From a virus (lineage: Duplodnaviria; Caudoviricetes), in the IMG/VR virus record IMGVR_UViG_3300032030_002018: DNA of 64,000 bases; one strand, written 5' to 3'. The notes beneath the pieces are model-generated. The model ran no database searches, had not been told where the DNA came from, and saw only the letters and a list, made by a program, of their open reading frames with translations. Shown here piece by piece: positions 47,816 to 51,961 of the stretch; the stretch's first letter is position 1, and each line of letters begins with the position of its first letter. A program made the translations under genes and the position numbers.

Positions 47816-48607
47816 CTATGAAATCCCATAGACTTGTTCATACTTCCTAAAATCGCAAGTCTTAATCTTCACAATCAATCTCTCCCCCATTCTTGTTCTC
47901 AACCCAAATGGTGCTTTCAATACCAATCCCTCTGCATCATAGTCCTTGTTCTCTGCAATGGTTGATTTAAACCCTTTCTTGACAAATTCTATTGCCTCAT
48001 CAATGGTCATCATTCCCATATTTGGAACACAAGGCGCACCCATCTTCTCTGCAATACCCCTATAATTGTCTGTAAGTAGATAGGTATCATTTACCTTAAC
48101 ATCAAAGACAATGAACCCAACACCATTCCTAATGTAGTTTCCACCACTCTGTATCTTCATACCATAACCCTCACCATATATGGTATAAAGATTTGGAATT
48201 CTCCCAAAATCAGGCTCACCCTTTTCATTCACCCAACGATGCCCCCCAAATTCATCAGTTGGGATGAATACCTTTAACCCCAATGCCTTCAACACCACAC
48301 TTGCAGGGTATTTCTCCTCTAAGAACGCAAGCAGATGCTCCGGAATCTGCGCACTATCCGTCTTACCCTTATACTCAACATAAAATGAAACCCCTATAAG
48401 TTTCTCCCCATTATCCACCAAATCACGATGCACCTCAATGCGAATGTTTGTACCATCAATCTTTTCAGTTGCCTCCCATTTGATTCCTCTCAACACCTCA
48501 AATTCTGGGGAGACAAAACTCCCATCAAGTATGATGATATTTTTGTCATCCCTCTTGAATAGGGTGTTTATTTTCTGATAAGTATTTGAACTCCTTTTCT
48601 GTGCCAT
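47816..48607 (-). CDS. RNA ligase, Rnl2-like nucleotidyltransferase
   Basis: motif I EKIDGTN, YGEGYG, FIVFDV, EGLVLK, KIK. Confidence 0.85.
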   Translation of the reverse strand: MAQKRSSNTYQKINTLFKRDDKNIIILDGSFVSPEFEVLRGIKWEATEKIDGTNIRIEVHRDLVDNGEKLIGVSFYVEYKGKTDSAQIPEHLLAFLEEKYPASVVLKALGLKVFIPTDEFGGHRWVNEKGEPDFGRIPNLYTIYGEGYGMKIQSGGNYIRNGVGFIVFDVKVNDTYLLTDNYRGIAEKMGAPCVPNMGMMTIDEAIEFVKKGFKSTIAENKDYDAEGLVLKAPFGLRTRMGERLIVKIKTCDFRKYEQVYGIS

Positions 48608-50286: not shown

Positions 50287-50530
50287 ATCTCTATCTGTTT
50301 TTATTGGTTTAACTTAATGCAAATGTAAGAAATTTATTTGAATTATCCAAATATTTTGAGAACTTTTTTCAATTTTTTTATAGGTGCGTCCTGAGCACAC
50401 GTCTCTCTGACACAAATGTAAGCAATTTATTTTAATCTACCAAATAAATTAACAAAAAAGTGCAATCTCAATTAAGAAATTGCACTTTCCAACATAAAAA
50501 GTTATTAACCAATAAAACAACAAAGATAGA

Positions 50531-50887
50531 TTATACTAAATCGTCGTCTTCAAAATCTTCTTCATCATCCAACAGACCAAAATACTCCAAAGCGTCCTCA
50601 TCAAAGAATTCATTCAAATCATATTCGTCTGTTAATTGGTCAAGAGTGTGATAGCCGGTTGTAGCATATAGCACACTATCCAATGTATCAATAGATAATC
50701 CATTAATGTTTGTAACAAGTTGAAGCGCATCTTCTGACACAATGCCACTATCTATTAGGAAATCATAATATTGCCTTTCTACATTGCTCATACTCTCTTT
50801 AATCAATCGTTTGTTTATTGCTTTTGTAACTCTTTCTGTAATGAGTTGATTCAAGTCATTTTCAGTTAGTCTAATTCTCTTTTTCAT
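50531..50887 (-). CDS. LTExDL-leader protein
   Basis: MKKRIRLTENDLNQLITERVTKAINKRLIKE; TATTTAT motif upstream. Confidence 0.75.
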   Translation of the reverse strand: MKKRIRLTENDLNQLITERVTKAINKRLIKESMSNVERQYYDFLIDSGIVSEDALQLVTNINGLSIDTLDSVLYATTGYHTLDQLTDEYDLNEFFDEDALEYFGLLDDEEDFEDDDLV

Positions 50888-50943
50888 ATCTATATCAATT
50901 TTTTATATAATATAAATATATCAATAGAATGAAAAATACTTTG

Positions 50944-51026
50944 TGCCTACGGTGGGAATCGAACCCACAAGGGATAAATCCCAATGGATTTTAAGTCCAT
51001 AGCGTTTGCCATTTCGCCACATAGGC
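50944..51026 (-). tRNA. tRNA-Leu(TAA)
   Basis: acceptor gcctatg/cgtaggc, anticodon arm atgga-ctTAAaa-tccat, variable arm, GGTTCGATTCC. Confidence 0.92.
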
Positions 51027-51121
51027 ATACATACAGGTGAGTGAATTAAAATCTTGGAACAATATTTATTATAATCAAAAATTGCTGTAACTCACCTTGA
51101 TGTAAAATTCAGCAACTATAT

Positions 51122-51364
51122 TTATTTGGGACTTGCTCTTGCCATATTAAAGGTTAACTAATAGTCATTAATTAAAAACTAAAAATTCTTTAATATTCAA
51201 TTAAATGGGTCGGTCTCTTGCCATAAGTGATGGACTTGAATGTATGTGTGCTTTTGTAACCATAATTGGATAACCCTATTATGCACTATGATGTTGGGGT
51301 TTTGTTTTTATTTAAATATCACCTACTTTTTTCCACAATGTTATTTCGGACCGTCTCTTGCCAT
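51122..51364 (-). CDS. three 7-codon minigenes MARDGPK (51341..51364), MARDRPI (51201..51224), MARASPK (51122..51145)
   Basis: each ATGGCAAGAG-N11-TAA, downstream of a promoter repeat. Confidence 0.6.
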
Positions 51365-51449
51365 ATTAAAGGTGTTTTTATTGATTGTTTGACATTGCAA
51401 ATGTACACAATTTATTTTAATTATCCAAATGTTTTGAGGACTTTTTTTT

Positions 51450-51626
51450 TCAACTTTCCAAAAACAATATCAAATCTAATTCGTCTCCAAAGCCTTGTTC
51501 TTCAAGCACTTCTAATGCTCTATTGGATGCCTCACTTCCATCTGTGAGTATTGCATAGAGTCTTCCGTAGAAACCTTGGCAACTTGCCAATCCCTTAATA
51601 GCGTCTAAAATCTGTTCCTTATTCAT
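51450..51626 (-). CDS. MNKEQI-family small protein (not in ORF track)
   Basis: MNKEQILDAIKGLASCQGFYGRLYAILTDGSEASNRALEVLEEQGFGDELDLILFLES. Confidence 0.7.
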   Translation of the reverse strand: MNKEQILDAIKGLASCQGFYGRLYAILTDGSEASNRALEVLEEQGFGDELDLILFLES

Positions 51627-51672
51627 ATCTGTTCTTGTTTATTGGTTGTTTGTTGATGTAAATGTAAGCAAT

Positions 51673-51885
51673 TTATTTGATATTACCAAATGTTTTGACC
51701 ACTTTTTTCAACTTTTCCAAAAAAATCATCAAATCTACTACATCACTAAAATTCTGTTCTTCAAACAACTCTAATGCTCTCTTGGATGTTTCACTTCCAT
51801 CTGTGAGCCTTGCATAGAGTCTCCCATAATATCCTTGGGAATATGATAAAATCTTAATCGCCTCTAAAATTTGTTCCTTATTCAT
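51673..51885 (-). CDS. MNKEQI-family small protein
   Basis: tandem paralog of 51450..51626. Confidence 0.7.
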   Translation of the reverse strand: MNKEQILEAIKILSYSQGYYGRLYARLTDGSETSKRALELFEEQNFSDVVDLMIFLEKLKKVVKTFGNIK

Positions 51886-51961
51886 ATCTGTTCTTGTTTA
51901 TTGGTTACATTGCAAATGTAAGCAATTTATTCGATATTACCAAATGTTTTGACCACTTTTT

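Follow-up and report, generated by a model that had tools for sequence, protein, structure and literature searches.

Three open reading frames of seven codons each, arrayed in the genome of a Caudoviricetes virus, raise the question of whether units so short are translated and, if they are, what their translation is for. The window in which they were noticed is a stretch of 64,000 nucleotides and is part of a virus record of 334,687 bases (a jumbo phage of about 335 kb, 34% GC), whose genome contains a major head protein and 16 standard tRNAs. A Shine-Dalgarno sequence is found upstream of 12 of 208 genes in this phage and dozens of promoters of the type TTTG...TAnnTTTG are present in its genome, two features that, on the basis of the published promoter consensus (PMC6847099), indicate a Bacteroidetes host. 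Near-identical DNA was found in sheep-gut runs. Moreover, a sheep-gut metatranscriptome yielded an identical contig over positions 50543-51642, which comes from the contigs of one study and from a library that may include DNA; the missing cover upstream of 51901 was not counted as evidence.

All three frames are encoded on the minus strand and each is 24 nt long. A sequence-only reading had described them as MARxxPx minigenes, and each is an exact match to that pattern at the expected site: minigene 1 (MARDGPK-stop) at 51341-51364, minigene 2 (MARDRPI-stop) at 51201-51224 and minigene 3 (MARASPK-stop) at 51122-51145. When one mismatch was allowed, the matches in the window were still these three ORFs, while 100 shuffles of the window gave a mean of 0.03 matches and never reached three. 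In the whole genome the motif occurs in just 3 of 683 short intergenic ORFs, which are again the three minigenes. Minigene 1 has A at -3, -12 and -13, positions at which this base is a positive determinant of starts (PMC6847099), and its peptide is found also at L137, L150, L157, L170-172 and L185. The peptide of minigene 2 is the commonest of the family described below and is present in a group of AT-rich jumbo phages as well, and that of minigene 3 recurs at L159 and L195, where different codons are used for Ser, Ala, Lys and the stop. Among the differences listed between minigene 3 and a relative (run X6), one falls in the ORF, changing codon 2 from Ala to Thr, and ten fall in the 22 nt just 3' of the stop. 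It had also been proposed that minigene 2 could start 13 codons earlier. An in-frame ATG is indeed present at 51263, within the hairpin of a pseudoknot, but the N-terminal extension is not conserved (the ATG is missing in L170, and missing and out of frame in L137 and L185) and was rejected.

The minigenes lie behind a promoter of the Bacteroidetes type, as the sequence-only reading had supposed for a promoter in general. It is found at 51429-51398 on the minus strand, 34 nt upstream of the first ATG, and consists of a TTTG at -33, a 20-nt spacer and TACATTTG at -7 (TTTG-N20-TACATTTG); the consensus, taken from PMC6847099, has 61 matches on the minus strand of the genome. On the 3' side, the tRNA-Leu into which the transcript had been said to continue is a tRNA-Leu(TAA) at 51026-50943 and is probably cotranscribed with the minigenes; related arrays have at their 3' end a tRNA-Leu, a tRNA-Lys or no tRNA. 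There follow on the same strand an ORF of 118 aa (50531-50887), which among related loci is not a conserved partner of the arrays, and an intrinsic terminator-like hairpin (50455-50490, minus strand) that would end the transcription unit. The flanking ORFs have no Pfam or PHROG family.

Further features of the phage were recorded in passing. A promoter and a small gene are tandemly duplicated as a 259-nt unit in the window (51444-51647 and 51703-51906), the two gene copies being of 58 and 70 aa and both beginning with MNKEQI; no Pfam or PHROG family was found for the 58-aa copy. An Rnl2-type RNA ligase (PF09414), possibly a tRNA-repair enzyme, is encoded at 47816-48607, about 2.3 kb downstream of the minigenes, and such a ligase lies close to an orthologous locus in another assembly too. 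Outside the window, ARAGORN reports a tRNA-Ile with anticodon AAT (G000, 311434-311505); this anticodon is unusual for tRNA-Ile in bacteria and their phages. The sole credible tRNA-Pro of the phage, weakly called, lies in the tRNA cluster and has the anticodon UGG, which reads CCA, and neither Pth nor Pth2 was found in this phage.

The sequence-only reading had suggested a pattern search in related phages; pattern scans and neighbour proteins together led to 30 further loci, which fall into about four lineages. The first comprises close relatives and a chromosomal cassette, the second L142, L159 and L195, and the third the AT-rich jumbo phages (26-29% GC). The fourth consists of phages with Shine-Dalgarno sequences ahead of their genes (22 of 26 ORFs), for which a Firmicutes host is probable on this account. 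Loose pattern scanning brought to light the 435-kb phage L113, where three copies occupy a unit free of ORFs, and the 71-kb phage L112, whose one copy is flanked by a sigma-70-type promoter and a terminator-like hairpin. A stricter metagenome scan gave 38 matches, 22 of which are genuine arrays, and four orthologous loci were reached via neighbour proteins; one Bacteroidaceae genome in GTDB carries a family locus, and IMG/VR added one phage, whose major head protein is 71% identical to that of the phage studied here. Most lone matches that the loose patterns gave in viral, metagenome and GTDB sequences fall within long ORFs and were discarded as chance. No relatives were found in IMG/VR via neighbour proteins, nor among the INPHARED phages except for the tRNA, and a search of 300 further Bacteroidaceae genomes gave no locus outside the source genome.

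The number of copies per array ranges from one to four or more. Local duplication appears to enlarge the arrays, with four copies in L170-L172 (L170:55-410) and tandem MIKSRDRP copies at L146:4500-4990. Across the arrays no conserved downstream protein gene was found, their ends being a tRNA, a terminator or unrelated ORFs. A two-copy cassette without the phage promoter is present in a Bacteroidaceae chromosome (L185, a MAG from sheep rumen; L252). This cassette (L137:1100-1520, L150, L157, L185), of about 500 nt and phage-like, stands in a bacterial chromosome context beside a leucine-rich-repeat gene and is composed of a stub of the upstream 58-aa gene, two minigenes, the pseudoknot, a stem, a tRNA-Leu and a stub of the 118-aa gene; RNA run X1 contains letters matching the chromosomal version. 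Matches in the rel leader of Tetragenococcus (L175, L194), considered as a host counterpart, were put down to chance, because the ORF occurs in the source genome alone of 30 Enterococcaceae rel loci (one of them mis-anchored) and the ATG is lost in the sister species. A search of largely open-access literature about minigenes in phages, motifs of ribosome arrest and the RNAs of rumen phages gave no description of the family. The loci constitute a conserved, undescribed family of minigenes, very probably translated, that is accompanied by a new candidate pseudoknot and for which a function is proposed below.

Selection on the peptide had been suggested from the three copies of the window, and the wider family supports it. 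The family consists of 33 distinct nucleotide variants, which encode 22 peptides in ORFs of 7-10 codons. Since the seed pattern fixed ATG and TAA, the frame was tested in unfixed copies, anchored on the nucleotide core. In all 22 of these an ATG is in frame 6, 9, 12 or 15 nt upstream of the Arg codon, and a stop follows in frame 0-2 codons past the Pro or Thr, even though 12 have other N-termini and in five the stop has moved by exactly one codon; a 23rd core match, without ATG or stop, lies inside a tRNA, and one L142 copy is without its stop. In the non-seed cores, 20 codon changes were counted along a minimum spanning tree, of which 13 are synonymous against an expected fraction of 0.28-0.31 (p ~1e-3). 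Moreover, the transcripts of the AT-rich group also carry a second minigene class, N-K-P-P-P, which had not been searched for; its start, too, shifts by whole codons, and 11 of its 15 changes are synonymous (p below 5e-4). Changes are concentrated at third positions (32 of 50; 11 of 15), Ser is encoded by AGT, TCG, TCC or TCT, and both TAA and TAG serve as stops. The loci are related, so these p-values overstate independence; the independent lines of evidence nevertheless agree with one another. A pattern in which homologs keep the DNA motif and break frame and stop was looked for and is not what they show. From these comparisons it is very probable that the minigenes are translated and that selection acts on their peptides.

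The core of the family is R-[A/D]-[G/S/R]-P, with RDRP in 13 of the 33 variants, RASP in seven, RDGP in four, RDST in four, RDSP in three, and RAGP and RDKP in one each. The Arg is present in 33/33 variants, in part through selection by the search, and the Pro is mostly the penultimate residue; each minigene of the window has a single Pro. Selection acts on the choice of codons too. In fact, the Pro of the motif is encoded by CCG or CCC in 26 of 29 variants, while the two codons make up 14% of the Pro codons in the genes of this phage and 2% in the AT-rich group; in a small chromosomal sample they are common (57%). The codon ahead of this Pro is mostly CGA, TCG or TCC, each of which has a share of 1-8% in these phages, and GCA AGA is nearly invariant. 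The final codons AAA, ATT and AAT are all common in the phage, and minigene 3 uses AGT, which is read by the phage's own tRNA-Ser(GCT). Local pairing is not the reason for this codon choice, because in 46 cores the native codons paired no better with the flanks than same-GC synonymous variants did (mean rank 0.55). The unusual codons occupy the two positions that would fill the P and A sites in an arrest of the RAPP type (positions from PMC12992588), and it is possible that they were chosen for the identity of the tRNA or for firm codon-anticodon pairing in a paused complex.

The spacers between the minigenes had been regarded as unrelated, a view that has to be abandoned: copies 1 and 3 have a 33-nt repeat in common (88%), and the spacer upstream of copy 2 holds a conserved pseudoknot RNA (51248-51303, minus strand). 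The latter is formed by P1 (ACCC/GGGU), a pseudoknot helix (GUGC/GCAC) and a small hairpin, with AAUAGG and UUACAAA invariant in the main subtype. In other loci the pseudoknot helix reads GAGG/CCUC, GGAG/CUCC, UGG/CCA or GAAGUU/AACUUC, and in 5 of 6 pairs both sides are changed. Its covariation score is 0.54 against 0.17 in shuffled and at most 0.22 in slid controls, and a partner-swap test gave 0/20000; these controls are lenient, because the structure was named from the same sequences. Searches of Rfam 15 with the window stretch and with 12 related loci returned the tRNA only, besides weak sub-threshold matches (E up to 5 and up to 1, respectively), so that the pseudoknot is proposed from sequence comparison as a new candidate RNA motif. 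It occurs once in this phage genome, and some copies in other loci have no minigene downstream; four of five matches of the pseudoknot pattern lie within long ORFs and were set aside as chance. In the Shine-Dalgarno-using group the sequence model of the pseudoknot detected nothing, and there a CCAAU/UGG hairpin and a short common downstream stretch are found, which hint that the two RNAs may have a common origin.

Two further elements belong to the unit on the minus strand. An AAGUCC element (51232-51237) lies, in most loci, 3-8 nt upstream of a minigene start; it has no conserved pairing partner, and a pairing with the anticodon arm of the tRNA-Leu was rejected as not conserved. Between minigenes and tRNA there is a stem-loop RNA (51036-51096) with a GGUGAGU/ACUCACC closing stem, which is kept in L137, L170, L174 and L185 around a variable interior. 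Other arrays have structures of their own. Directly upstream of the MKIRDST-type minigene lies a second candidate pseudoknot, GGGU/ACCC with GGCGA/UCGCC (L113:2740-2815, L134, L135, L141, L158, L160), followed on its 3' side by a GGRCUU that could pair with the upstream AAGUCC; the GGAGG upstream of copies of this type was not counted as a Shine-Dalgarno sequence, because that phage group uses none (2 of 86 ORFs). At the 3' ends of the arrays in L113, L139, L146, L155, L160 and L162 a conserved RNA structure stands just upstream of the terminator; its closing stem, GGRUUC/GAAYCC, shows apparent compensatory changes, and the structure had no Rfam match in those loci that were searched. Shine-Dalgarno-using phages (L131:6290-6390, L132, L156) have a long closed stem GAGGAAGA/UCUUCCUC 3' of the minigene, which is absent from L112 and L161. 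A MIPMWL minigene in the Firmicutes-type loci is ambiguous, because it overlaps the CCAAU/UGG hairpin, and was left out of the counts.

The explanation that best accommodates these data, and to which we give about an even chance, is that the locus is a self-contained RNA operon of the phage, in which each 7-codon ORF is translated and maintained by selection as a minimal translation-impeding sequence. A ribosome would initiate, translate R-[A/D]-[G/S/R] and pause as the Pro codon occupies the A site, in the geometry of the SecM RAGP and RAPP arrests. With a chain of just five residues, the complex might linger or release peptidyl-tRNA, drop-off being as likely as stable arrest. That the minigenes act by slowing the ribosome is somewhat more probable than not; a shared theme of impeding translation is supported by the polyproline class that accompanies them in one lineage. 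A point against arrest is that neither RDRP, the commonest core, nor RDST is a described arrest motif. With less assurance, several pause sites on one early transcript may, in a dose-dependent way, trap or decoy host ribosomes in trans, together with the tRNA isoacceptors reading CCG, CCC, CGA, TCG and TCC, which an AT-rich phage would hardly need; the pseudoknot might, as a guess, position, protect or gate the next minigene. Such a trap is favoured over a switch in cis because copy number varies by duplication, no downstream gene is conserved and the pairing with neighbours is not conserved, and we advance it as the purpose of the array tentatively, at less than even confidence. Against it counts that the phage itself needs ribosomes and encodes no detectable Pth; the AGT codon of minigene 3, readable by a tRNA of the phage, and the L142 copy without its stop are further points against. 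Strong toxicity, furthermore, is argued against by the Bacteroidaceae chromosome that keeps its two-copy cassette, albeit without the phage promoter. In its broadest form the proposal is that an operon of minimal arrest motifs and a pseudoknot selectively ties up host ribosomes or host-preferred isoacceptors and leaves the AT-rich mRNAs of the phage unaffected, or serves as a decoy for a factor of ribosome surveillance or defence, in the service of a host takeover or counter-defence that needs no conventional protein product, and that it has spread across phages of different host groups and been acquired by a host chromosome; this is a speculative possibility, on balance doubtful.

The stalling step is common to a reading with a different purpose, in which a paused ribosome would act in cis on neighbouring RNAs and alter how they fold, are processed or persist, in the manner of leader peptides, the output being a tRNA or non-coding RNA. 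The minigenes are in fact interleaved with structured RNAs in both the Bacteroidetes-type and the AT-rich lineages, and the last minigene of L159 pairs with the tRNA-Lys at -19.7 kcal/mol, better than 40 of 40 synonymous recodings; when the minigenes of that locus are blocked, the predicted pairing of the tRNA-Lys acceptor stem rises from 0.01 to 0.90. In the window, in contrast, the predicted acceptor-stem pairing moves merely from 0.73 to 0.83. Moreover, the flank pairing of the 46 cores is no better than that of their synonymous variants, many arrays lack a tRNA and finish at a terminator, and a switch has no need of tandem duplicates, so that this reading appears unlikely, if by no means negligible. 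Alternatively, the released peptides (ARDxPx after removal of Met) could be ligands of a host protease, translation factor or defence sensor. This would agree with the selection at the peptide level, with R-x-x-P at a fixed distance from the C-terminus, with multiple copies, which would increase the dose, and with retention in phages with differing translation signals. It leaves the fixed use of CCG/CCC and CGA unexplained, and neither an export signal nor a conserved partner gene accompanies the minigenes; free hexapeptides are, besides, short-lived in the cytoplasm. Such ligands are improbable. Still less probable is a role of the repeats as RNA motifs, be it C-rich seeds or sites for protein binding in a sponge RNA, with incidental ORFs. 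The structured non-coding RNA around the minigenes would suit such motifs, and the codon choice far off the phage norm together with the nearly invariant GCA AGA does imply some constraint at the nucleotide level, but all indels ahead of the core have lengths divisible by three, the stop moves by whole codons, changes are biased to third positions and Ser alternates between AGT and TCN. Chance, or decaying duplicates of a gene start, might be suspected as several phage proteins start with MAR and copies 1 and 3 have upstream sequence in common, and is refuted by an expectation of 0.03 matches and by conservation in about four lineages with diverged flanks.

ORFs of seven codons escape annotation, yet selection on both peptide and codons can be measured in them across differing translation signals. 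Peptides that paused ribosomes here would be far shorter than the SecM/RAPP-type arrest peptides of the papers cited here and would contradict the N-terminal region reported as a requirement; a ready test series exists in the naturally occurring RAGP, RASP, RDGP, RDSP, RDRP and KPPP. A trap would also give a natural role to the trapping of tRNAs by minigenes, long known but largely a laboratory phenomenon.

Among known systems, several offer partial parallels. Polyproline stalls depend on EF-P, and leaders with Pro codons exist, such as MgtL. The N-K-P-P-P class of the AT-rich group and the favoured CCC and CCG recall them, whereas the minigenes have no transporter or other regulated gene downstream and those of the window a single Pro. 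The downstream-peptide (glutamine-II) motif is a pseudoknotted RNA upstream of a short ORF. It likewise stands directly ahead of that ORF, in phages as well, but the pseudoknot described here has no Rfam match, other conserved nucleotides and far shorter peptides. Leader-peptide attenuators, whose coding sequence supplies a strand to alternative hairpins that are conserved, find no counterpart in the arrays with the single exception of L159. The stalled termination at a Pro near the stop, which had been invoked for the minigenes, is not the closest model, because the Pro is usually second-last and not last, and the core resembles instead the elongation-arrest motif of SecM and the RAPP peptides.

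The other comparison made by the sequence-only reading, with the phage lambda bar minigene (AUG AUA UAA; PMC8012679), fits less well. Both are phage ORFs short enough for drop-off of peptidyl-tRNA and sequestration of tRNA, given that chains under 7 residues can leave the ribosome (PMC8012679) and that the minigenes, with 7 sense codons, would have 5 residues at the proposed pause. The bar dipeptide, on the other hand, traps the tRNA of its last codon, the rare AUA directly ahead of the stop, whereas in the minigenes the last codons are common, the unusual ones are internal, a 4-residue motif is selected, and a dedicated promoter and structured RNAs are present. A further defining trait of the bar type is the accumulation of peptidyl-tRNA with toxicity that is rescued by Pth.

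With SecM and the RAPP peptides (ApcA, ApdA, ApdP, YwcI, CruR) the minigenes share an Arg three residues ahead of a Pro near the C-terminus, and their variants include exact RAGP, the motif of E. coli SecM, and RASP, known from uORFs of the SecM cluster (PMC10987492). Mutagenesis of RAPP showed that Arg is irreplaceable, that Asp is partly tolerated at the second position, as in ApdA and ApdP, and that Gly is tolerated at the third (PMC12992588), so that the RDGP and RDSP variants are plausible against the described motifs, RDRP, RDST and RDKP being undescribed. The SecM/RAPP peptides are much longer (YwcI has 100 aa, and the motifs of ApcA, ApdA and ApdP lie past residue 100). They are encoded in single copy upstream of a regulated gene, whereas the minigenes are arrayed without a conserved downstream gene. 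RAPP-like cores alone are reported to be insufficient for arrest and to require an N-terminal region (PMC12992588), often a localization signal, whereas the minigenes have only 2-5 residues ahead of the Arg; moreover, most proteins tested that bear RAPP or RAGP gave no arrest (PMC10987492). A further trait that defines this family is an EF-P-resistant arrest with the fourth codon of the motif in the A site. Since two traits defining RAPP and one defining bar are not found in them, the minigenes belong to neither family; they probably combine a reduced form of the SecM/RAPP pause with the drop-off known from minigenes.
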